Shown: positions 15,636 through 40,266 of the stretch, piece after piece
Numbering within the stretch: position 1 is the stretch's first letter
Layout of the letters: every line of letters begins with the position of its first letter
Origin: a virus
Taxonomy: Duplodnaviria > Heunggongvirae > Uroviricota > Caudoviricetes
DNA: 64,000 bases
IMG/VR virus record: IMGVR_UViG_3300033273_000374
Span: 128,001-192,000 of that record
Reading direction: 5' to 3' (one strand)
Made by a program: the position numbers and the translations under genes
The notes under the pieces: generated by a model
What the model was told of the DNA's origin: nothing
The model's input: only the letters and a program-made list of their open reading frames with translations
Databases searched by the model: none

Positions 15636-15893
15636 CTATTTTAGTAAAACAAACACTGTGCTGCTGAGTGCTACAGCAAGTGCACCTATGATGGCTGTGG
15701 CCCAGCCTAGCAGTTGACGATTACGGAACTGGTCATTCTTTACAACCGCAGTTCTAATTTCTGCAATATCGTTGTCCTGCTTGGCCATATGTTCAATGAT
15801 ACGATCAAGTTTGTTATGCAATTGGTTGTACCTTTCTCCACACAATTCAACGTGTGCTTCAAGGCTCTCTTTTTCAATATCGGTTGTTGACAT
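15636..15893 (-). CDS. Coiled-coil + C-terminal TM protein (holin/XhlA-like)
   Basis: LEAHVELC.ERY coiled coil then ~22-aa hydrophobic C-terminus. Confidence 0.55.
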   Translation of the reverse strand: MSTTDIEKESLEAHVELCGERYNQLHNKLDRIIEHMAKQDNDIAEIRTAVVKNDQFRNRQLLGWATAIIGALAVALSSTVFVLLK

Positions 15894-15930
15894 AAGTCCA
15901 CCCTACTGGTTCGTATAATTGACGCTTGAG

Positions 15931-15988
15931 TGTTTTATATGTGCCTGTGTATTGCCTAGTGTGTGCCTTGTAGCATCACTATTATTTA
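15931..15988 (-). promoter_or_regulatory. TAAATA late promoter followed by three AGGCA repeats at 11-bp period
   Basis: TGCCT on + strand at 15942, 15953, 15964; CAGGCACATATAAAACA on - strand. Confidence 0.6.
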
Positions 15989-16429
15989 TTAGGAAGTGAC
16001 CCGCATTATAAATGTGTTTTTATTTTCGCCATGTGTGGCAAACACACTGGGTTCCATGATACAGTTCTCATCTAGACCGCTGATTGCAGGTGTGTTGTGT
16101 AGTGCATCTGCCAAGAACCGTGCATTTTCTCCTAGCACACCATCTTGTTCTACACCAAATTGCCATAGCCATATGTTGTGATCAACGTTGAAAAGTTCTC
16201 TAATTACCCTGTGCTTTTCGCCAAATTTATCACTATACCTTTTGTGTATTTTGTCAATTGACCCTGTGATAGGATCTTGAATACTGTGTGGTTGTGTGTA
16301 CAAACCTACAGTCTGTACCAGTGTGTCGTAGTTTCGCTGTTGATTGCGACTTTTGCCTGCTGCACGATATTCGTTGGTGCGTGTAATATCTACCAATGTC
16401 AACAGAGCGTAAAACTCTTTAAATTCCAT
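15989..16429 (-). CDS. Hypothetical protein
   Basis: TLVDIT.T, RNQQRN.DTL.Q. Confidence 0.65.
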   Translation of the reverse strand: MEFKEFYALLTLVDITRTNEYRAAGKSRNQQRNYDTLVQTVGLYTQPHSIQDPITGSIDKIHKRYSDKFGEKHRVIRELFNVDHNIWLWQFGVEQDGVLGENARFLADALHNTPAISGLDENCIMEPSVFATHGENKNTFIMRVTS

Positions 16430-16830
16430 GCAACGGATCCTCGTCTCTCAAATACAAGCCCAATTCAATCAATGCACTTTGATTCTTGCATTCTATACAA
16501 TCAACACTATTATACGACATAAACCGCAAACACTGCAACCTATTTGTGCCCATGTACACACCCCAAATCATACCATCCTCGTTCACCACAGGAGGATTGA
16601 TGTGTGGCCACATTTCGTGTGCGCCTTTGCGTTTGTAGAAACTTGTATTCCACCAGTCCGGTGTACATTTATAATATAGTAGTGGATACCATAATCCATC
16701 ATCCATTATACGTGGTAAGTCACGCCAATACCAACGGTTGTCATTGTGCCAACTCATTGGCGATAGTTGTGATAGTTCTACACTGTGTATTCCAGGATGA
16801 TCTTGCCATAGGCTTTTACAATGTGTCATT
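16419..16830 (-). CDS. Hypothetical protein (possible ParB/Srx-like fold)
   Basis: GLWYPL...GTNRL; start likely MTHCK after TAAATA. Confidence 0.5.
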
Positions 16831-16848
16831 ATGTGTGTATTTAATTCA

Positions 16849-16882
16849 TAAAAAAAAGCGGTGCTAAAAAACACCGCTTTTT
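16849..16882 (-). terminator. Rho-independent terminator (bidirectional-type)
   Basis: AAAAAGCGGTG-loop-CACCGCTTTTT. Confidence 0.85.
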
Positions 16883-16903
16883 GTTTAGTAATAGTAAAGT
16901 GTA

Positions 16904-17293
16904 TTAGACGATTGCGTCTGCCAATGCACTTGTTGGACCACCTTGCTCAACTGTTGCTGAACTAAGGTCGATGCTGTCAACTGTGCCTAGTGCTCGTACT
17001 GCTGCTTGAATAACAGTTGAAGCTGCAAAGTTGCCTACTGCTGTGTCTGTTGTAAGACGCTCAATGCCTACGATTTGACGTGTGTCTGAATCGTATAGTG
17101 GGCCTAGGTATACGATTGTACCAAATGTACCTAGTAATGAGTAAACCTGTGCAAGTGTGCTTGCTGGGCCTGTCTTTCCACTTACGTCTGCTAGATAATC
17201 AATTTCGAGGTATGTAATGTCTTCTGCACCTGCTCCCATTGAAACTGGGAAAGTAGGTGTTGATGTTGGGTGTACTCTTGTTAAGTCAGCCAT
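16904..17293 (-). CDS. Putative virion structural protein (paralog of 17315-17734)
   Basis: MADLTRVH..., Q.A.R.LG. Confidence 0.6.
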   Translation of the reverse strand: MADLTRVHPTSTPTFPVSMGAGAEDITYLEIDYLADVSGKTGPASTLAQVYSLLGTFGTIVYLGPLYDSDTRQIVGIERLTTDTAVGNFAASTVIQAAVRALGTVDSIDLSSATVEQGGPTSALADAIV

Positions 17294-17314
17294 TTTTCTA
17301 TTCCTTCTCTATTA

Positions 17315-17734
17315 TTATACTAGCTCGAAGCCAGGATCTGTTACATCGCTGCCACTGCAGTCGAGGTTGTTACCGCCAGCTGCTGTTAGTGTGCGAATTG
17401 CTGTTTGTAGTGAACTTGCTGTGTAAGCACCAGCTGGGTATAGAGCAACACTGATTTGACCACTTGTGTCACCTTCAACTTGGTACATTTCAATGTTTGC
17501 ACCACCGTTTGTGATTTTGTCAAAAATTGCTACTACACCTTCTGCTGCGTCTAGCTCGTTGCGTAGATCTTCTACGTTACCTGACACGTCTTTGATTATG
17601 ATCTTAAAGAAGTCAAGTTGTGGTCCGTTTAGGATCACTGTTTCGTCTGCTGCGATAGCGCCGCTGCCTGATGCGCCACGGTCTTGGTTAACAACACCAA
17701 ATGCTGAACCATGTGTACGGGTAATTTCCGCCAT
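17315..17734 (-). CDS. Putative virion structural protein
   Basis: MAEITRTH..., LQTAIRTL; TAAATA, leader hairpin and GGAG upstream. Confidence 0.6.
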   Translation of the reverse strand: MAEITRTHGSAFGVVNQDRGASGSGAIAADETVILNGPQLDFFKIIIKDVSGNVEDLRNELDAAEGVVAIFDKITNGGANIEMYQVEGDTSGQISVALYPAGAYTASSLQTAIRTLTAAGGNNLDCSGSDVTDPGFELV

Positions 17735-17792
17735 TTTCTTTCTCCAAATGTGTGCAAATGCTTTGCATCTGCTTACATTTATTTATGACAGT

Positions 17793-18479
17793 TTATAGGA
17801 ATTTTCGTCCAAATGCGTAACCAGCACCAAATGCTGCTGCTGCTTTTGCCACAGTTTTTACTGCACTTTTTGCAATACTGTCGCCTTTTGGACCACCACT
17901 AACTAGTCCTTGTGACACTGTTGCTGCAGCATATGGACGGAACATGTCGCTGCGGAATTTTTGGTCATGACGATTTGCATTTATCATGCGTTGAGCAACT
18001 GCTTTGCGTTCGTTGTCAGAAGCACTACCATAGTCCTGTGCAATGCGACGTGCATTTTTTAGCAGACCATTGCGAATTTGTAAATTGCGTTGCATGCTCA
18101 ACAACATCTCTCTGTCTTGTGCCTTGTTTATTTTACCGCTGGCTACCTGACGCAAATAACGTTTGAACTTGAGTTCATCCAAATACACATTGCCTGAACT
18201 TGTAAGTTTATCACCAAATTTGCTTTGATTTGTGAGTATTGCTGCAAGATTGTGCAAGTCTGTTGCACCTGTGCGCACATTTGAGAAGGTTTGATACTGC
18301 AGTGTTTTTTTTGCATAGGCTGCTGCAGCCTCGGGGTTTTCATAACGCATCTGTTGCAACATCAGCATGTGCTCAAAGAATGTGTTGGCAATGTCATACT
18401 CACTGTAACCAGTGGCATCTTTTGGATTTCGCAAGTATCTTGCTTCAGTGAGCTCTTCTCTTATAAACTCAAATGCCAT
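17793..18479 (-). CDS. Putative internal head protein
   Basis: MAFEFIREELTEAR; amphipathic Gly/Ala C-terminus. Confidence 0.5.
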   Translation of the reverse strand: MAFEFIREELTEARYLRNPKDATGYSEYDIANTFFEHMLMLQQMRYENPEAAAAYAKKTLQYQTFSNVRTGATDLHNLAAILTNQSKFGDKLTSSGNVYLDELKFKRYLRQVASGKINKAQDREMLLSMQRNLQIRNGLLKNARRIAQDYGSASDNERKAVAQRMINANRHDQKFRSDMFRPYAAATVSQGLVSGGPKGDSIAKSAVKTVAKAAAAFGAGYAFGRKFL

Positions 18480-19726
18480 TACCATTCCTTCTTTATGACA
18501 AAGTTATTGCGGTTGAATTCAAGTCTATCATTAAACTTTACTGCACCGCCTGCTTTGCCAACTGCTACATAACCTTCAGGATTTGTAACTTCATATCCTT
18601 GGTCAGTCTTTACAAATGTTCCCATTCCTTCAACTGTATTTAACTTCTTGATCAGCATCAATTTCAAATTGTTTATTTGTTTATACACAGTGAGTATGCT
18701 GAACAGTGTGTCTTTGTTTTCTGCAAACGAATCTTGCATGTCTTGTATTCTTTGCAATCTTGCTTGTGCTGCAGGTGACTCTTCTCCACCTTTTAACTTT
18801 GAAATTTCGCCTCGCATTTTGTTTGCAAAAAAGTCTTGTAGTCCACGCAAAAATGTGTTACTGTCTCCAACACTTTGATTTTTTCTAACAAGATTGTTTA
18901 TGTAAGGCTGGACAAACTTTTTAAAGTCTGCTTGTTGTGTAACTTTATCAAACTCAGCTTTATTTGTATTAGCCAGTGTGCTGGTAATTTGTTTTATACC
19001 ACGCTGTATGATGCTGTTTTGTTTGTCACTGAGTGTGGCACTGCCTGTTACATCTTTGTAAAATGCATCATCTACCCAAACACTTGGTGTTTTCTTAAAG
19101 CCTTTTACAGCAACACCAAAACTGCTCTTCATGTCTGCAATAGTTTCACCTTCGTATGCAGTGTGGAATATAATGCCGAGGTTGGCAGCACTCATGCGTT
19201 TTGCAACATCGCTGTCTGCAGGCACTGCATATGTAATGGTGTTTGGACGGAATGTCAAGTATTCTACACCATCAATGGTTTCGTTTTTCAAACTGTCTTT
19301 GGTGAACATCATGTCGCCCTGCACAACACCCTCAATGCCCAGTTTGCTTAATTCGTCTAAACACAAGTGCAGTTTGTCCTTGACTGGGCTCTCGCCATAT
19401 ACATCATCAATCTCTTCGTGTGTGCGTCCTAGTTTGGGTGTTGCACCAAACACACTTTTTGTGCCTACAAAAAACTTACCGCTTTCTGGATCTGTGCCAC
19501 ACACAATAGCAGGTGCACCATCCCATTTAACAGTGACTTGCTGGCTACGGTCCCCACCTTGAGCCAGCATGCCACGCACACCTTCTAGGTATGCCAGTGC
19601 TTCACGAGCACCTGTGTAACCATCATCCAACACTAAATCTTCAAGATGTGTCATATGCACATTCTTGCCTGCTTTGCTTTCTATCAGCATCCAATCTCTT
19701 AGTGTGGTAATTTCTTGTAATAACAT
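18479..19726 (-). CDS. DUF6267-like protein with ligase-type nucleotidyltransferase motifs
   Basis: H.EDL, TVKWDG (motif I), QGD, PEGYV (IV), AVK (V). Confidence 0.6.
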   Translation of the reverse strand: MLLQEITTLRDWMLIESKAGKNVHMTHLEDLVLDDGYTGAREALAYLEGVRGMLAQGGDRSQQVTVKWDGAPAIVCGTDPESGKFFVGTKSVFGATPKLGRTHEEIDDVYGESPVKDKLHLCLDELSKLGIEGVVQGDMMFTKDSLKNETIDGVEYLTFRPNTITYAVPADSDVAKRMSAANLGIIFHTAYEGETIADMKSSFGVAVKGFKKTPSVWVDDAFYKDVTGSATLSDKQNSIIQRGIKQITSTLANTNKAEFDKVTQQADFKKFVQPYINNLVRKNQSVGDSNTFLRGLQDFFANKMRGEISKLKGGEESPAAQARLQRIQDMQDSFAENKDTLFSILTVYKQINNLKLMLIKKLNTVEGMGTFVKTDQGYEVTNPEGYVAVGKAGGAVKFNDRLEFNRNNFVIKKEW

Positions 19727-20502
19727 TATGCAGTCTTTTCTAGTTGTGCTACAACCGCTGCTTTTAATTTAGCATCTGCATTGATAGTTTTAAGAAGTTT
19801 TGCAACTTTAGGGCTTGCTTGTGCAGGTGCTTGTGCTTGTGCTGCTGGTTGCGCACCGGCTGCTGCAGGCTTGTCTATGCTTTGTATTGCTTTCTTGTCA
19901 ACTGCAAATATAGCACTACCAATTTTTAATTGTATTTGCTCATCGCCTTGTGCATCTTTTGTGTTGAGTGTAGCAGCATCTTTGTTTACCACTGCTTGTT
20001 TCTTTTCGCCTTTGGCATTTATGTATGTAACAGTGTCACCCACTTTAGGATCAATTGCAGGACCACTAGTGGCTACACCTGCTGCTGTTGGTTCATTGGG
20101 TTTGGGTTGTGCGCCTGCGGCAGCCGCTGCGGCTGTTCCAGCGCCTTTGTCTCCTCTGTTTACAGTTTTATAAATTGTTTCTTGGTATTTGGCTTTGATT
20201 GCACCTGTGATATAAGCATCCAGTGCTTTAGAATCATCTGGATTGCCTGTGAATGGTGGTTCATTATTTTTTGGATCAGCAAAATCTACCACTTTGTTTG
20301 TTACGTCTGTGATCAGTGCTGGTGCTTCTTTAGCATACACATCTGCGCCACGAGCCTTTAGTTGTGCCATTGCTTTTGTAACATCAGCTTTGACACCTTT
20401 GAGCACTGCAGGAACCTGCTTTAATTTTTGGTTATACTCACGGTCAAGTTTCCGAGTCGCTACATCCACATCTGCTTCTAAAATTATTTGTGAAATTTTC
20501 AT
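19726..20502 (-). CDS. Ala/Lys-rich putative internal head protein
   Basis: MKISQIILEA; low-complexity linkers. Confidence 0.55.
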   Translation of the reverse strand: MKISQIILEADVDVATRKLDREYNQKLKQVPAVLKGVKADVTKAMAQLKARGADVYAKEAPALITDVTNKVVDFADPKNNEPPFTGNPDDSKALDAYITGAIKAKYQETIYKTVNRGDKGAGTAAAAAAGAQPKPNEPTAAGVATSGPAIDPKVGDTVTYINAKGEKKQAVVNKDAATLNTKDAQGDEQIQLKIGSAIFAVDKKAIQSIDKPAAAGAQPAAQAQAPAQASPKVAKLLKTINADAKLKAAVVAQLEKTA

Positions 20503-20747
20503 TTTGACTCACCTAATTTTTGTGCGCCACGCTTAAACTTTTTGGTATCACGTCCTCTGATGCTGTTGATAAGTCTGCGTTCTAAGTCGCCAGCAACTGC
20601 TTCGTCGTAGTGTTCATAAAACTCGTCAATTAAATTAATAGCACTTTCAATGATTTGACTACCACGTGATTCAAATACATGCTGTCTATCACGCTCGTGT
20701 ATCATGTTATTAAGTTCATTTAAAATACTGCGAGTTTGTTTTTTCAT
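20499..20747 (-). CDS. Hypothetical phage protein
   Basis: TRSIL.EL...ESR...I.SAINL...LERRL.NSI; TAAATA upstream. Confidence 0.65.
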   Translation of the reverse strand: MKKQTRSILNELNNMIHERDRQHVFESRGSQIIESAINLIDEFYEHYDEAVAGDLERRLINSIRGRDTKKFKRGAQKLGESK

Positions 20748-20807
20748 TACCTAGCACCCGATTTAATTTATTTATCGTTAAATACAGTATACTTGGAGGA
20801 GTAGGAG

Positions 20808-21539
20808 ATGTCAATACAAGATAACCCTGGCGGCCATTTCGCTGAATTGGCCCGTATAGCATACATGACAGAAAAAGAAAGTAGACCTATTGCTAAAAAG
20901 ATGGGATATAAGAAAACAAAACTCATCGATCAAAACGGTGCAGAGTGTCTTTTTTTAGAAAATGACGACACACTGGTGTTAGCATTCCGTGGAACAGAGC
21001 CCAAAGAGTTCTCAGATATTAAAGCAGATCTCAAAGCATGGAAGCGTAAAAGTAAAACCTGGGGCATGGTCCACGCAGGTTTTTATGAATATCTCAATAA
21101 AATTTGGGAAAGTGTGTTAAGACACATCAACTACGGCGACAGAGAAACAAAAAAATTGTATATTTGTGGACACAGTCTTGGTGGTGCAATGGCCACACTT
21201 GCTGCAAGTCGTTTGCAAGATCGTGTGATAGGATGTTACACCTATGGATCGCCACGTGTGGGTGGTCGTGTTTGGCGTAGCAAATGCACATTTGAACATC
21301 ACAGATACGTCAACAACAATGACATTGTGCCACGTGTTCCATTTTGGATTATGGGTTTTAGACACTATGGCGAATTACACTATATCAATCATTATGGTAA
21401 TATTCGTAAACTCACAGCCTGGCAGAAGTGTAAAGATCAATGGCGTGGACGATTGAGAGCATGGCAAAAGCGTGAGTTCTTTGATGGTGCTCGAGATCAC
21501 AGCATGGTTCAATACAGTAAAAAAATTAACAAGAGTTGA
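20808..21539 (+). CDS. Lipase class 3 (alpha/beta hydrolase)
   Basis: AFRGT, VHAGF, GHSLGGAMA, TYGSPRVG, DIVP, DHS; strong GGAGGAG SD. Confidence 0.92.
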   Translation: MSIQDNPGGHFAELARIAYMTEKESRPIAKKMGYKKTKLIDQNGAECLFLENDDTLVLAFRGTEPKEFSDIKADLKAWKRKSKTWGMVHAGFYEYLNKIWESVLRHINYGDRETKKLYICGHSLGGAMATLAASRLQDRVIGCYTYGSPRVGGRVWRSKCTFEHHRYVNNNDIVPRVPFWIMGFRHYGELHYINHYGNIRKLTAWQKCKDQWRGRLRAWQKREFFDGARDHSMVQYSKKINKS

Positions 21540-21546
21540 CCAAAAA

Positions 21547-21646
21547 TCTTGTTTGCCTAGTTTTGCTGTACTAAATACACTGTCATTTCAATGACACCAG
21601 GCACAAATAAAACATACTATAGGCATTTAGGCAAACAAGAGGCAGC
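21547..21646 (+). promoter_or_regulatory. RBS-sequestering 13-bp inverted repeat enclosing a TAAATA late promoter, with AGGCA repeats
   Basis: TCTTGTTTGCCTA (21547-59) / TAGGCAAACAAGA (21628-40); TAAATA 21572-77; inner TGTCAT-ATGACA hairpin. Confidence 0.7.
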
Positions 21647-23347
21647 ATGAAGTTACCAAACGATGCAGAGGCACAACTAAATCGATTACTAGGCGCATTC
21701 ATAAGGCAAATACCAGAGGCACCCGAATATCGAGAGAGACTGGTCGAAGAACTTGAGATCATACTCAAATTACGCTTCACCGATTACTTCCTAACAATTT
21801 GCGATGTACTGACGCTAACCGCGGACATTCCCCACATGACCAGAGGTTCAGCAGGGTCAAGTCTTGTGTGTTACCTATTAGGTATCACTGATGTGGATCC
21901 CATAAGATGGCAAATACCGGTTGCACGTTTCCTAAATCCTTTGAGGGATGACTTGCCAGATGTGGACATAGACTTTCCGCATTGGCAACAGGATACTGTG
22001 ATGCAAAGAGTATTTGCGAAATGGCCTGGTCGCAGTGCAAGAATCAGTAACTATGTGCTATACAAGGAGCGCAGTGCCCGTAGAGAAGCGGCACGCCGTC
22101 TTGGCGCATCTGGCAAACTCCCTCGCAATTTTAAGTATGAAGATTATGACATCGATAAGGAAGAGGCAATGAGGCTCGAAAAGAAACTACTAGGCAAAAA
22201 AAGATCAATATCAAAACACTGTGGTGGCATTGTGATACTAAAACACAAGGTGCCAAAAAGTCTAATCAACCAAGACAATCAGTTGATGCTGGACAAAAGA
22301 GAAGTAGAAGATTTAGAACATCTAAAAATAGACATACTGGCCAACAGAGGGTTGAGCCAACTGTTAGAAATAGACAGTGACACACCACTGGAAGCATATC
22401 CAGAACAAGATTTTGAAACATCACAACTGTTGTGTAGAGGTGATGTGCTAGGCGTAACGCAGGCTGAGTCCCCGGCCATGCGACGCCTGTTCCAAGCAAT
22501 ACAACCACAATCAAAAGCAGATTGTGTGTTTGCCACAGCACTGATTCGTCCTGTGGCCACAACAGGAAGACAAAAGGCAGCATTTTTTCAAGACTGGACA
22601 GAAAGCGCACTAGAAGATACCATAGTGTATGAAGATGATGCCATACACAAAATAGCAAACCTAATTGGTTGCGACATGTATGAAGCAGACATGTATCGTC
22701 GTGCATTTGCAAAACGTGACGAAGAACGTGTGATGGAATTTATGGGCAAGATGGGAGAATGTGAAGACAAAGAACAGATTATCCAAGAACTGTATGGCTT
22801 GGGTAACTTTGGGTTGTGTAGAGCACATGCTGTGAATCTTGGAAGGCTGATTTGGGCATTAGCATATCAAAAAGCACACAACCCAAAGGATTTTTGGCGT
22901 GCTGCACTCAAACACTGTGTGGGATCATACAGACGTTGGGTACACAAAACGGAAGCAAAGAATGCGGGGTGGGATCTACGTGAACTGGGTTATGAGAATG
23001 GCATCACCAGCACACCACAAGCACAGTATCGCAAACATGGTTATTGGACACAACCTGACTTTATGCCTGGTATGTTTATACAAGAAACTTGGGGCGATAG
23101 AGTAAACTTTGCAGGACTCATAGCCAATGGCAGAACATTCCGTGGTGAAAGTGGACGCTATGTTACATTTGTTACTGCAGGCATTGCCAATGGCGAGTAT
23201 GTGGACATCACAGTCAAACGTCCGTTCTCACACAAGGATCATGATGTTATTGTGGGTTCAGGTAAGATACGCATAAGCAACGGTGCACGTTACATTGAGT
23301 GTTATGATGCACAAGGTCATAGATTAGAAAAATATTTGTCAAATTGA
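21647..23347 (+). CDS. dnaE: DNA polymerase III alpha-like (family C), PHP-less compact form
   Basis: RGSAGSS, GITDVDP, RFLN, PDVDIDF, KIDIL, ESPAMR, ALIRP, AHA; C-terminal OB-like region. Confidence 0.88.
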   Translation: MKLPNDAEAQLNRLLGAFIRQIPEAPEYRERLVEELEIILKLRFTDYFLTICDVLTLTADIPHMTRGSAGSSLVCYLLGITDVDPIRWQIPVARFLNPLRDDLPDVDIDFPHWQQDTVMQRVFAKWPGRSARISNYVLYKERSARREAARRLGASGKLPRNFKYEDYDIDKEEAMRLEKKLLGKKRSISKHCGGIVILKHKVPKSLINQDNQLMLDKREVEDLEHLKIDILANRGLSQLLEIDSDTPLEAYPEQDFETSQLLCRGDVLGVTQAESPAMRRLFQAIQPQSKADCVFATALIRPVATTGRQKAAFFQDWTESALEDTIVYEDDAIHKIANLIGCDMYEADMYRRAFAKRDEERVMEFMGKMGECEDKEQIIQELYGLGNFGLCRAHAVNLGRLIWALAYQKAHNPKDFWRAALKHCVGSYRRWVHKTEAKNAGWDLRELGYENGITSTPQAQYRKHGYWTQPDFMPGMFIQETWGDRVNFAGLIANGRTFRGESGRYVTFVTAGIANGEYVDITVKRPFSHKDHDVIVGSGKIRISNGARYIECYDAQGHRLEKYLSN

Positions 23348-29784: not shown

Positions 29785-29814
29785 AAAAAAAAGCAGGCAA
29801 ATAAAATGCCTGCT
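29785..29814 (-). terminator. Rho-independent terminator closing micro-ORF operon
   Basis: AGCAGGCA-loop-TGCCTGCT followed by T-run. Confidence 0.85.
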
Positions 29815-29828
29815 CATCTTTACCGACT

Positions 29829-29885
29829 TTACTTTTTTGTTTTACGAGTAAAAAACTCTACTTCTTCGTCTGTGTAAGGATACAT
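29829..29885 (-). CDS. 18-aa micro-ORF MYPYTDEEVEFFTRKTKK
   Basis: TGATG coupling to upstream micro-ORF; ends before terminator. Confidence 0.45.
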   Translation of the reverse strand: MYPYTDEEVEFFTRKTKK

Positions 29886-36549: not shown

Positions 36550-37229
36550 AATCCTGCTTCCTTGAGTATGTGCTTGACCCATTCTGTGTCAGCATAGTAA
36601 TCTACAAACCTACGCTTCCAGTAATCTGGATCTATGTATGGAAATACCAGTTCAATTTGTTCGGTACTGAGTTTATCTAATACACCAATACCTGTATCGC
36701 AATTGTAAACGACCCAACTACTTATGCGTCCTGTGGTTATGTCATGCACAATACGATTGGGGCTAGCATATAAAAAGTAATGATTAAACACACTTTCTTT
36801 TTGTTCTGCCCAAGCAGTCATTGTTTTCAGACTGCGTTCTAGTGCATCTTGTGTTGCTTCTTTGCGCAAGTGTTCAAACAAGTATTCTTGATATAGTGCA
36901 TCCTTGCACCAATGGTCTAATTTTTTGTTTTGCTTTATAACCCAGTCAATGAACTTGGCGGTGTTTATAGCACGTATGTTGACCATGTGCCTACCAAACT
37001 TTACAAACGCATTGTAGTATGGACTTTCGCAAAAGTCTTTGTAGTTTTTTAGTTTGGCGCTGCCTTGTGTTAGTTCATAGAAACGCAAATAAGCAGTCAT
37101 GCCCAATTTGACACCTGCTTCATTTTCCTGTTGCGCACGTCGCTTGGGCTCGCACAGGTGTGCTGCAAGAGTACTTTCCTTGCGATATCCTTTTCCGCAA
37201 TATTGGCATGTGTAGTCTAGATTTTGCAT
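36546..37229 (-). CDS. Zinc-finger phage protein
   Basis: CQYCGK...L..H.CE; promoter TTTACA-N17-TATAAT places start at MQNLDY. Confidence 0.7.
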   Translation of the reverse strand: MQNLDYTCQYCGKGYRKESTLAAHLCEPKRRAQQENEAGVKLGMTAYLRFYELTQGSAKLKNYKDFCESPYYNAFVKFGRHMVNIRAINTAKFIDWVIKQNKKLDHWCKDALYQEYLFEHLRKEATQDALERSLKTMTAWAEQKESVFNHYFLYASPNRIVHDITTGRISSWVVYNCDTGIGVLDKLSTEQIELVFPYIDPDYWKRRFVDYYADTEWVKHILKEAGL

Positions 37230-37273
37230 TTTATGATTTATTATAGCATGTTTGATGATGCTTGTAAAGTCAT

Positions 37274-37753
37274 TCATAATTTGCCATCATTGCCATGCAA
37301 TTGGTCTAGTGCTTTTATATCTTTTTCTGTGTATTGTGTACACAACCAGTCCAACTCATCACTTTTGGCTGTAGGGTGCATCTTTTTTATGTACTTGCGT
37401 ACCTTGTTGGTATTGCTTTTGTCTTTCTTTTTGTGTGCCACCCATTGATGAAACTGCTTGCCCATGCCTGGACTCACAGTGCATAACAATTGCCATACTA
37501 GTTTAGGATGTTTTGCCAGTTCAAAGTACTGTGTGTTCACACGTTGATTTGTAGCCATCAAGTAGTATGCAGCAAGATCGTTGCTGCCTTTTACAATGCT
37601 CATGTATCTGTTGAGCAAGAATGGAGACACAGTCTTTTGCTGTTCGGGTGTGAGTCTGTCATAGAAACCATAGTCTTTTGCATCCAGTGCATTCAGTATG
37701 GCATTGAGTGGAACTTTGTCAGTCAAAATGCACACCTCCGGTTGTGATGTCAT
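37274..37753 (-). CDS. Clamp-loader small subunit (gp62-like)
   Basis: PF..NR.MS, N, HP.L, F..W. Confidence 0.55.
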   Translation of the reverse strand: MTSQPEVCILTDKVPLNAILNALDAKDYGFYDRLTPEQQKTVSPFLLNRYMSIVKGSNDLAAYYLMATNQRVNTQYFELAKHPKLVWQLLCTVSPGMGKQFHQWVAHKKKDKSNTNKVRKYIKKMHPTAKSDELDWLCTQYTEKDIKALDQLHGNDGKL

Positions 37754-38036
37754 TTACAAAGTATAACTTGAACATGTTGGCATCGTCAATATTTTCAAAC
37801 TCTAACAATAGCCAATGTTTGAGTGGACCTTTTCTTGTGGCACTATACAACTCCATTTTCCTTGCAACACGCTCTGCTAGTTGAGGTCTTGCACGAAAGT
37901 ATGCTTCTACACGTGATGCTAGTGCGTTTATGGCATCATAATCAGGATCACTGTTGGGTGTGATCCTGAACATAAATGTGCGATGTTCTTTTTGAACTAT
38001 TGCTTTACCATGCTTTGGTGATGTCCACAATTTCAT
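37719..38036 (-). CDS. Hypothetical protein
   Basis: C-terminal F....DA..FKL. Confidence 0.6.
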   Translation of the reverse strand: MKLWTSPKHGKAIVQKEHRTFMFRITPNSDPDYDAINALASRVEAYFRARPQLAERVARKMELYSATRKGPLKHWLLLEFENIDDANMFKLYFVNDITTGGVHFD

Positions 38037-38505
38037 TCTGCCTGTTTATTTCTTTGGCTGCAAACACTACTCTAGGTTTGTCACAAGTTTCAATGGGTAT
38101 AGCAAGTATCTGTCCTTGCTTGAGTTTAGGAAAATACCATTTCACATCACTGTATAAGTCTACAATGCGTATGGGCAAGTAGTCATGCATCTTACTACTC
38201 AATGGATTAAAACTGAATGCTTTGAATCCTCTGTCGTTGAGACTGCTGAGATTGAGCATTTCTAAATCGCCAACTTCACGCTCGCCAATGAGAATCTTCC
38301 AATCTATGGGCAAACGTATGAGATGTCCTGCAACATCAATAACAGCAGCAGGACTGTTAAAACTTTCTAAAAAGATCAGTGGAATAAAAAAGTAATCTGG
38401 ATTGTTGCTGTCGCTGTTGTCTAACACTGCAAAACGCAAGTCATCAACTTCGTCTGGCAGTTCGTTCATTTCAAACGCTGTATCATCTAGTGTAAGTATT
38501 CTCAT
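38005..38505 (-). CDS. Conserved hypothetical phage protein
   Basis: MRILTL, PLIFLESF, VKW.FPK. Confidence 0.7.
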   Translation of the reverse strand: MRILTLDDTAFEMNELPDEVDDLRFAVLDNSDSNNPDYFFIPLIFLESFNSPAAVIDVAGHLIRLPIDWKILIGEREVGDLEMLNLSSLNDRGFKAFSFNPLSSKMHDYLPIRIVDLYSDVKWYFPKLKQGQILAIPIETCDKPRVVFAAKEINRQNEIVDITKAW

Positions 38506-38807
38506 TCATGTTCTCCGCCAGGACCACGTCCGTTATATCCTTTAAGAAAATTAAAACTTTCAGGTGCACGTTGAGCAGTAGCAAAGGTGCCTACTGTAAC
38601 CACTATGCCTGCAATTAGAAGTATGTGAGTTACCACACTTATGCCCCACAGTGTCCAACTGCCTACACTGAATGCAAACACTAGACACCACATCCATGCA
38701 AGCACTTGTAATACAAGATGTCTTACTTGTAAATCGTTGATATTCTTCAGTGGATTGTGTTGATAATTCATTACACCATTCCACGAATCATTGATAAATT
38801 GTCTCAT
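38502..38807 (-). CDS. Membrane protein
   Basis: NPL.NI, QVLAWMW, two TM segments. Confidence 0.7.
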   Translation of the reverse strand: MRQFINDSWNGVMNYQHNPLKNINDLQVRHLVLQVLAWMWCLVFAFSVGSWTLWGISVVTHILLIAGIVVTVGTFATAQRAPESFNFLKGYNGRGPGGEHE

Positions 38808-38808
38808 G

Positions 38809-40266
38809 TTAACTCCAGTCTATTTTTTCAACCTTGAACGGGTAGTTTGCTTCTTTGTAGAAAGCCTTACGTTTGGTAAGGTGCCTTTTGGCAAATCTGC
38901 AGGTGCTTGTGATGTCCCAGATTTGGACGAAATCTTTGTCATGTGCCTTGCGAATTCCACGCCCGATACTTTGGATGACCCTAACAAAGCTCTTGCCAGG
39001 CTCAAGTAGTACAAGATTGAATATCCTAGGGATGTTAATACCAACAGCGGCAACACCATAAGTAGCAATAATAACTTTATCGCTAGATTCAGCAACTTCA
39101 TCATACTGTTCTTTCCTGTCTGCAGCCTTGGTACTGCCACTCACAAACACACTGTTTGCTATGCGCCTTTGCAGTTCTTTGCCTGCATTCACTCTATCAA
39201 CCAGTATCAGTGTATTGCCACTTTGCACAATTTGATTGACCATGCTGGCAATGTAGTCCAGTCGTTTCTCATCATCTAACAAATACTTCAATTCGCTTTG
39301 ATAGTTCTGATGCTCTTTTAAGTCTATTAATTGTAGCACATTCACTTCGCAATTTGCAAGAACTCCTTTGTCCTGCAGTTCTTTTGCACTGATTTGATTG
39401 ACAACAGGACCAATGCTGCACGTGAGTGCTACACTTTCAAACTTCTCTTTGGGTATGGTTCCTGTAAGTCCCCAACGTATGGGTATATGACTCATCACAC
39501 CTGTGAGCAGTGTCTTTAGTGCATCTGCTTTGGCTTGGTGCACCTCATCAATCATTATGCACACCACATCTTCCAAAAACTCTTGTATGGTTATTTCAGC
39601 AACTTGGTTCTTGGTGTTCTTCAGCAGCACATTCAAACTCTGCCAAGTGCATATGGTGTGAGTACGTCCAAATTCTTTTCTGTCACCAAAGAACACACCC
39701 ACATCCAGTCCCATATTGATATAGTCTGCTTCTGTTTGTGTTACAAGGCTTTTGTTGGGTACTACAATTATGGTGCGTCCATGTACTTCACAACGTTCGC
39801 TGAGTGCGGCAGTCATCAGTGTCTTGCCTGCACCTGTGGCTACTTCTTGTATGCACTGTGGATTTTCCACAAACTTGTTTATGGTTTCAATTTGATAATC
39901 ACGTAGCACAATTGGTTCGCCTGCAACAGGATGCCCTTTGGGCCATGTGCGATCTGCATATGTGTTTGCATCCACAGGCTGTAATGGATAGTCAATGGTG
40001 TATTCACGTGTGTCATTGAGGCTGGGCTCATAGCCTGCACTCACTAGTATGGGCAGTATTTCAGGCAACAGGTTGATATAGGTGCTGCCGCCCATTTGAA
40101 AGTATGCTTGTTTGCCATCCCAACGTCCAAGACGCACTGCTGGCATGTAACGTGCACCAGGAATCTCATACTTGAACTGGTTGCTTAACTTGCGACGTGT
40201 GTCCAAGTCTAAACCTTCAATCTTTACGTTTACTTCGTCCTTAACGTGTAGTATGCAAGGTTTCAT
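38809..40266 (-). CDS. uvsW: UvsW-like SF2 DNA helicase
   Basis: LRDYQ, ATGAGKT, DEVH, GLTGT, GINIP, QSIGRG.R. Confidence 0.88.
   Translation of the reverse strand: MKPCILHVKDEVNVKIEGLDLDTRRKLSNQFKYEIPGARYMPAVRLGRWDGKQAYFQMGGSTYINLLPEILPILVSAGYEPSLNDTREYTIDYPLQPVDANTYADRTWPKGHPVAGEPIVLRDYQIETINKFVENPQCIQEVATGAGKTLMTAALSERCEVHGRTIIVVPNKSLVTQTEADYINMGLDVGVFFGDRKEFGRTHTICTWQSLNVLLKNTKNQVAEITIQEFLEDVVCIMIDEVHQAKADALKTLLTGVMSHIPIRWGLTGTIPKEKFESVALTCSIGPVVNQISAKELQDKGVLANCEVNVLQLIDLKEHQNYQSELKYLLDDEKRLDYIASMVNQIVQSGNTLILVDRVNAGKELQRRIANSVFVSGSTKAADRKEQYDEVAESSDKVIIATYGVAAVGINIPRIFNLVLLEPGKSFVRVIQSIGRGIRKAHDKDFVQIWDITSTCRFAKRHLTKRKAFYKEANYPFKVEKIDWS

Follow-up and report, generated by a model that had tools for sequence, protein, structure and literature searches.

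What does it mean when two genes on opposite strands of a phage genome, one for a DnaE-type DNA polymerase and the other for a small membrane protein, carry arrays of the same pentamer, AGGCA, in their leaders? This question is raised by a 64,000-nucleotide (nt) window (the whole stretch of DNA analyzed here, bases 128001 to 192000) of the IMG/VR virus sequence IMGVR_UViG_3300033273_000374, a single contig of 202,913 bp with 39.7% G+C that is ~57% complete by the CheckV estimate and that carries most of its genes on the minus strand. Its source is an uncultured marine Rak2/PA5oct-like jumbo phage, and the closest cultured phages by similarity of the single-stranded DNA-binding protein (SSB) are PA5oct, Atu_ph07, Vibrio phage 2.275.O, and Yersinia phage fHe-Yen9-04, themselves Rak2/PA5oct-like jumbo phages; a megablast comparison of cultured phages with the region gave no match. 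The original prediction was that a common DNA- or RNA-binding regulator reads the repeats and co-controls a putative lysis gene and a family-C polymerase adjacent to a lipase. Our verdict is that the repeats are a real, conserved cis-regulatory RNA element, best read as a translational operator of the phage T4 gene 32 type that has been extended to a set of three genes, the third being the gene for the SSB.

The densest AGGCA cluster of the window consists of seven plus-strand copies at 21599 to 21721 (starting at 21599, 21621, 21629, 21640, 21669, 21704, and 21717). Four of these boxes occupy the DnaE leader (21599 to 21644), where the last one overlaps the Shine-Dalgarno sequence (SD; GAGG), and three lie within the first 75 nt of the DnaE open reading frame (ORF; 21669 to 21721). 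On the minus strand, three copies at 15942, 15953, and 15964 (spanning 15942 to 15968) follow one another at 11-nt spacing in the leader of a gene for a protein of 85 amino acids (aa). These positions, a 16/17 match between two 17-mers, one from each array, and a TAAATA motif upstream of both arrays (21572 to 21577, plus strand; 15983 to 15988, minus strand) had all been reported before and proved exact. The repeats are also not a genome-wide habit of the sequence, as the carrier leaders are the most AGGCA-rich of the contig. In a census of the 90-nt regions upstream of 287 called genes (expectation, 0.11 AGGCA per 90 nt; Poisson P corrected for 287 leaders), the DnaE leader with its four copies ranked first (P = 5e-6; corrected P = 0.0015), followed by the leader of the 85-aa gene with three (corrected P = 0.055), and the antisense word TGCCT showed no comparable clustering in any of the 287. 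Although the two 17-mers have no other copy at up to two mismatches in the 203-kb genome, we rejected the 17-mer as the functional unit because orthologues conserve the box and an A-rich spacer but not the 17-mer; the exact 17-mer is lineage specific, and the corresponding stretch in one orthologous locus (L082) reads CAGGCACATACATAAACA.

The third-ranked leader of the census lies just outside the window (genome positions 194954 to 195030, minus strand), where the words AGGCAC, AGGCT, and AGGCAC at 14- and 11-nt spacing precede the gene for a 328-aa protein (genome positions 193967 to 194953, minus strand). This protein matches phrog_1192, annotated as "single strand DNA binding protein" (E = 2e-64). 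The top six PDB matches of its AlphaFold model (mean predicted local distance difference test score, 71) are all T4 or RB69 gp32 (E = 2e-7 to 2e-6; probability, 1.00), and the next matches have E values above 0.04; thus, going by the model, the protein is an SSB with the gp32 fold. Intergenic sense-strand box arrays occur in the contig only in the leaders of these three genes.

Orthologous leaders keep the boxes in all three families. For DnaE, protein matches 68 to 99% identical over 80 loci yielded 43 leaders that retain boxes, with a mean of 2.67 AGGCA per 90 nt versus a background of 0.12. In the 39 unique leaders that were aligned, TAAATA and ATTTAGGCA are invariant throughout, with GGCAC and the SD box close to invariant. 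SSB leaders (65 unique sequences; 63 to 89% identity) carry at least one AGGCA in 63 cases and at least two in 51; their mean of 2.15 per 90 nt is 17-fold that of the surrounding DNA (0.12), and antisense TGCCT is present in none of the 65. The 19 unique leaders of the 85-aa gene, which reach down to 39% protein identity, share ATAAATA, GATGCT, three or four [AC]GGC[AT] boxes 10 to 13 nt apart, and GCRTC, and two to four AGGCA boxes are present in each of four further orthologues (L241, L288, L312, and G005). The extended consensus, approximately WWAGGCAMA, is the same in the three families, and GGC, along with the A that follows it, is invariant. Spacing is mostly 8 to 14 nt, increases about twofold between boxes that are separated by an A-rich spacer or a hairpin, and ranges from 7 to 29 nt both within and between leaders. 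A looser pattern, GGCW, matched many coding-like sites in five large relatives and was uninformative, and one alignment row (L223), to which wrong coordinates had been assigned, was left out. Conservation of the boxes in orthologous leaders thus supports the part of the original prediction that posited a shared cis element, and with it a common reader; as to the choice between DNA and RNA that it had left open, the sequence evidence favors RNA.

RNA is favored because the boxes are confined to the sense strand of a presumably transcribed leader, vary in spacing (8 to 14 nt), overlap the SD or AUG, and continue into the ORF. They are always in the sense orientation, on genes of both genome strands, and sit downstream of the TAAATA motif. 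In the DnaE ORF, the word NGGC[AT] is conserved at +22, +45, and +58 (and at +71 in some orthologues) while the encoded residues vary. Among 18 DnaE orthologues, the Arg20 codon is AGG in 17, although AGG makes up 7% of Arg codons, and the Gly16 codon is GGC in 17. The TAAATA motif itself behaves as expected of a putative T4-late-type promoter, a class defined by a TATAAATA-like -10 element without a -35 element, a position before late genes, and dependence on a gp55-type sigma factor: of 78 [CA]TAAATA copies, 46 are found no more than 120 nt upstream of a sense gene start, versus ~14 to 28% for scrambled controls. The early promoters of this phage are of the sigma70 type (GGTTGACA-N17-TATAAT).

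A DNA-level element, in which repeats about one helical turn apart would be bound, as operators or iterons, by a DNA-binding transcription factor or a replication protein, or would form a sigma54-like -24/-12 promoter (GG-N10-GC), could draw on several features of the locus. These include the 11-bp spacing in the 85-aa leader of the window and a GGCAC-N6-GGCA arrangement that resembles the sigma54 consensus TGGCAC-N5-TTGCA. Moreover, a search of IMG/VR with the fixed 11/11 spacing pattern retrieved mostly unrelated tandem DNA repeats, along with a few unexplained box-rich leaders and three of the 85-aa orthologue leaders listed above (L241, L288, and L312). This explanation nevertheless appears very unlikely to us. 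A spacing of 7 to 29 nt, together with a last box that overlaps the SD or abuts the ATG, argues against both phased DNA operators and a sigma54-type promoter, and the latter was rejected; its start site, counted from the last box, would fall inside the ORF. A DNA-level role also fits poorly with a box array that begins only after the promoter, extends to the start codon and beyond it, and keeps the sense orientation on genes of both strands, as well as with the covariation of the flanking elements as RNA.

If the boxes are RNA words, the organization of the leaders indicates what kind of element they belong to. Each carrier leader consists, in order, of the TAAATA motif, a folded RNA element, and an unstructured A/C-rich stretch with two to four boxes, which in the DnaE and SSB genes reach or overlap the SD or AUG. 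In the DnaE leader, the folded element is a hairpin at the 5' end of the presumed late transcript, directly after the TAAATA motif (21581 to 21596, plus strand). It was found by RNAalifold and is also present in the minimum free energy fold, and four of its six pairs show compensatory double changes across 39 sequences. Hairpins with covarying arms likewise begin the SSB leaders. The 85-aa gene has instead a conserved but uncovaried stem that closes the box-bearing loop, formed by GAUGCU (15972 to 15977, minus strand; GATGCT in all 19 leaders) and AGCGUC (15921 to 15926, minus strand; GCRTC in all 19); this stem is longer in the four further orthologues and reaches 7 to 8 bp in L241/L312 and G005. 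The box stretches themselves fold no better than dinucleotide shuffles. The z scores are +1.08 and +0.80 for those in the window, with medians across orthologues of +0.59 for DnaE and 0.0 for the SSB gene. For the loop in the leader of the 85-aa gene, z is +0.76 and the median across orthologues is +0.74, with z > 0 in 95% of them. In many SSB leaders, the last box supplies or abuts the SD (AAAGGCAAC, then 4 to 8 nt, then ATG), and in several of them a box stands between the SD and the AUG, and the start itself, AUGGCA, forms a box-like word.

This anatomy matches that of the T4 gene 32 operator. There, a folded 5' element precedes a less structured stretch, over 40 nt long, in which UUAAA/UAAA words recur and which leads to the ribosome-binding site; repression needs both the pseudoknot and the repeats (PMC535899). 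As in T4 and RB69 (PMC535899; PMC3014915), the element stands in the leader of a gp32-fold SSB gene, a folded 5' element is followed by a largely unstructured stretch of a repeated short word that runs into the ribosome-binding site, and the transcript issues from more than one class of promoter. The SSB promoters are nested (genome positions 194990 to 195080, minus strand; L107:2990-3080), with a late-type CTAAATAC inside the 17-nt spacer of a sigma70-type TTGACC...TATACT, and orthologues keep this layout (TTGACnnnATAAATAnnnnnnCATATACT); conservation of the two promoter types suggests that the SSB is expressed throughout infection. There are also differences from gene 32. The word here is AGGCA(A/C), with a period of 10 to 13 nt, rather than UUAAA/UAAA; the 5' element is a hairpin, with no pseudoknot shown; binding is predicted; the SSB is only 14 to 18% identical to gp32; and the word also marks the DnaE and 85-aa genes, a feature not known for T4. 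The two copies in the window are not SSB leaders.

Based on this match in anatomy, and on the SSB gene being the most widespread carrier, which points to gp32-style translational control, we read the AGGCA boxes as an RNA operator recognized by the gp32-type SSB of the phage, a reading to which we assign a probability of roughly 0.4. Under it, the boxes would be single-stranded recognition words, along which a protein preferring AGGCA would bind cooperatively and compete with the 30S subunit. The most likely reader would be the phage's own SSB. With all free single-stranded DNA covered, the excess SSB would silence its own mRNA in the manner of T4 gp32. In this marine lineage, two further targets would be silenced as well, namely the accessory DnaE polymerase and the operon that begins with the gene for the 85-aa membrane protein.

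Several points weigh against this assignment. We infer the SSB as the reader by analogy only; to our knowledge, T4 gp32 represses only its own mRNA; and the gp32 site size of ~7 nt is unlike the box period of 10 to 13 nt. In the 85-aa leader, the closing stem shows only U-A to U-G changes and no double compensation, and the boxes stop ~50 nt upstream of the start codon, such that occlusion of the start would need spreading or a structural switch. Transcription starts are taken from the promoter motif rather than mapped. Finally, since the contig is ~57% complete, a dedicated regulator could be encoded elsewhere in the genome.

Such a regulator would read the same RNA operator in place of the SSB, as an RNA-binding protein that is encoded in the missing 43% of the phage genome or supplied by the host and that governs a small post-transcriptional regulon. 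We rank it directly after the SSB and regard it as possible but doubtful, with the enhancer or stability, DNA-level, and antisense explanations all less likely. A regulon of several genes is more reminiscent of T4 RegA than of gp32 (PMC3014915), and a word with an invariant GGC is easier to reconcile with a sequence-specific binder than with a generic SSB. RegA likewise acts through an unstructured RNA determinant near the start that recurs on several mRNAs, and the recurrence seen here suggests one common repressor. In contrast to the three genes marked here, though, the RegA regulon takes in ~30 mRNAs, and RegA sites differ from the boxes in being A+U rich and including the AUG (PMC3014915). 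Neither a RegA (PF01818) nor a CsrA (PF02599) homologue was found in the incomplete contig, but the RegA result says little, as its control search gave no signal. CsrA/RsmA leaders are similar in that short purine-rich words recur along their single-stranded RNA and one such word lies at the SD; the CsrA core, however, is GGA, whereas GGC is invariant here. It also counts against a separate regulator that the boxes are most widespread and most dense at the SSB gene itself, as is typical of autogenous control.

The position of the boxes at the SD could also be taken to mean that they enhance translation or stability, with SD-like AGG serving as standby sites, CA-rich stretches as enhancers, and the 5' hairpin as protection from 5'-end-dependent decay, all in the service of a high output of late proteins that are needed in abundance. 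DnaE (GAGG) and many SSB leaders do obtain their SD from the last box, the box stretches lack structure and are A/C rich, and an SSB is needed in stoichiometric amounts. We consider this unlikely, as the C and A after GG are invariant though unable to pair with the anti-SD sequence and the ordinary ribosome-binding sites of this phage are AAGGAG or GGAG. Furthermore, a box in some orthologues directly adjoins the ATG (AGGCAATG), a distance at which it could not act as an SD, and boxes also occur between the SD and the AUG and within the ORF.

The DnaE leader carries what appears to be a second layer of control. A 13-nt arm, TCTTGTTTGCCTA (21547 to 21559, plus strand), located upstream of the putative late promoter, is a perfect complement of 21628 to 21640 (plus strand), which comprises box 3 and the start of the SD, and the two arms pair in the fold of the long transcript. 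A transcript that includes this anti-box folds at -28.5 kcal/mol (z = -2.9). GCC-containing anti-boxes in orthologues (GCCTCT, GCCTTTG, and TGCCTCTT) match the SD box of each respective leader and are found only where an upstream ORF is co-directional; none occurs in the 16 leaders without such an ORF. This arrangement fits gating in the style of the T4 late genes e, soc, 49, and I-TevI, in which the ribosome-binding region is sequestered by pairing with an arm that precedes the late promoter. Read-through mRNA from the upstream lipase gene would be silenced by pairing of the anti-box with box 3 and the SD, and late-promoter transcripts would be the only ones open to translation. Unlike gating in T4, the stem accounts for just one of the seven DnaE boxes, and none in the other two leaders, and so does not explain the array. 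The same pairing is what the boxes would offer to an antisense RNA, acting in cis or trans, if they were pairing sites rather than protein sites. The DnaE anti-box speaks for this possibility but covers one box of seven and is absent from the SSB and 85-aa leaders, and we consider antisense pairing the least probable of these explanations. We found neither a TGCCT cluster nor a further box array outside the three leaders in the contig, and no box-rich or anti-box-rich noncoding RNA that might act as a sponge or antisense, the contig being incomplete. The only anti-box-rich leader lies at genome positions 118425 to 118547 (minus strand; L359:4926-5048). It is a late-promoter leader with the three anti-box-like words UGCCUUA, UAGCCA, and UGCCUUAG; it folds no more strongly than shuffles (z = +0.2) and has no Rfam match.

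Pfam searches confirmed both families named in the original prediction. The gene (21647 to 23347, plus strand) encodes a 566-aa PHP-less DnaE-type (family C) polymerase core (DNA_pol3_alpha, E = 5e-43; DNA_pol3_finger, E = 2e-13), and the gene before it (20808 to 21539, plus strand) encodes a class 3 lipase (Lipase_3, E = 2.5e-25); the lipase gene matters to DnaE only as the upstream co-directional gene from which read-through transcripts would come. An 899-aa open frame outside the window (genome positions 36970 to 39967, minus strand; L355) matches DNA_pol_B. This family-B polymerase is preceded by an ordinary early leader of the sigma70 type in which boxes are absent, and we conclude that the DnaE is a second, accessory, presumably late-expressed polymerase. 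T4 offers a partial parallel in that gp32 and the DNA polymerase are both translationally autoregulated and the gp43 operator combines a hairpin with a single-stranded segment over the ribosome-binding site of a polymerase mRNA (PMC3014915). However, gp43 binds its own operator, whereas here the box-bearing polymerase is an unrelated family-C accessory enzyme whose word is shared with the SSB leader, and the family-B enzyme lacks boxes.

Relatives without a DnaE match in their contigs show that the element does not depend on this gene. One of them (G001; 288 kb, 80% complete) has an 85-aa leader with four boxes, and another (G002; 252 kb, 72% complete) has an SSB leader with three AGGCAAC boxes. 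From these sequences, the element appears independent of DnaE. In G002, G007, and G009, boxes are present in the SSB leader but absent from the short leader of the 85-aa homologue; the SSB leader is therefore the constant carrier, and the DnaE and 85-aa genes seem, on the sequences compared, to carry boxes only in some lineages. Because no other leader carries the boxes as widely, the word probably originated at the SSB gene and spread later to the two other late genes.

The SSB leaders of some cultured relatives carry other short tandem words. The clearest case is the Agrobacterium phage Atu_ph07 (L232:520-600, plus strand), in which TTAGCACAA occurs twice before the SSB start, a pair that is unique in the 490-kb genome; the Vibrio phage leader has ACGGTACAA twice, and that of PA5oct has TAGGATAA-type words. 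These words would fit a leader that co-evolves with its reader, and Atu_ph07 is a cultured system in which SSB autoregulation via a repeated word could be tested. A separate array of ~10 AGGCA in ~90 nt directly precedes a 93-aa ORF of unknown function in a 32-kb viral contig (IMGVR_UViG_3300031949_001619; L243:5700-5830, plus strand) and may represent a further, independent example of such a leader.

The 85-aa protein (15636 to 15893, minus strand) was less well served by its earlier label. Its translation predicts a tail-anchored coiled-coil membrane protein with a conserved N terminus (MSTTDIEKxSLEAHVELC), a coiled coil, and one C-terminal transmembrane segment. It belongs to no Pfam or PHROG family, and the "holin-like" designation found no support. 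Resemblance to the lysis protein XhlA is subthreshold (E = 0.073 or worse in 5 of 12 members), as is that to DUF2951 (E = 0.013), and the likeness to XhlA-type proteins is one of topology only (coiled coil plus C-terminal transmembrane segment). No endolysin family was matched among the neighboring ORFs searched, and several neighbors match virion structural families. Hence, a role in lysis is possible but unsupported, and the proposed link to lysis timing is speculation. Between the two leaders of the window lies the gene for a conserved phage protein of 415 aa (18479 to 19726, minus strand; DUF6267, E = 2e-102; phrog_455). Elsewhere, a terminator-like hairpin at 29790 to 29830 (minus strand; AGCAGGCA-TTTTATT-TGCCTGCT followed by a T run) holds the box word by chance of its stem and is not part of the element.

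Rfam at the gathering score gave no match in the window, the leaders remained untouched even at E values up to 10, and we found no published account of an AGGCA leader element in the literature. As a conserved cis-regulatory RNA motif with no counterpart in Rfam, the element should help to annotate the promoters and leaders of Rak2/PA5oct-like phages. Gene 32 is the textbook example of autogenous control, but such control of this gene is known from few phages. Here, a word that differs from that of T4 and is sharply defined recurs in dozens of diverged leaders of a large uncultured aquatic jumbo-phage clade, which constitute a natural data set on how an SSB or another protein reads RNA. For gp32, it is not yet clear what sets its own mRNA apart from other RNA (PMC535899). 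The leader set also lets one ask whether replication proteins are co-regulated post-transcriptionally. The most far-reaching version of our reading, which we think improbable at present, is that an SSB with a preference for AGGCA runs a small regulon in which the level of free SSB would set translation of the SSB itself, the late family-C polymerase, and the membrane-protein operon. If so, free SSB would report the single-stranded DNA exposed by replication and thereby couple replication status to late functions, and the membrane-protein operon under its control may act in lysis.

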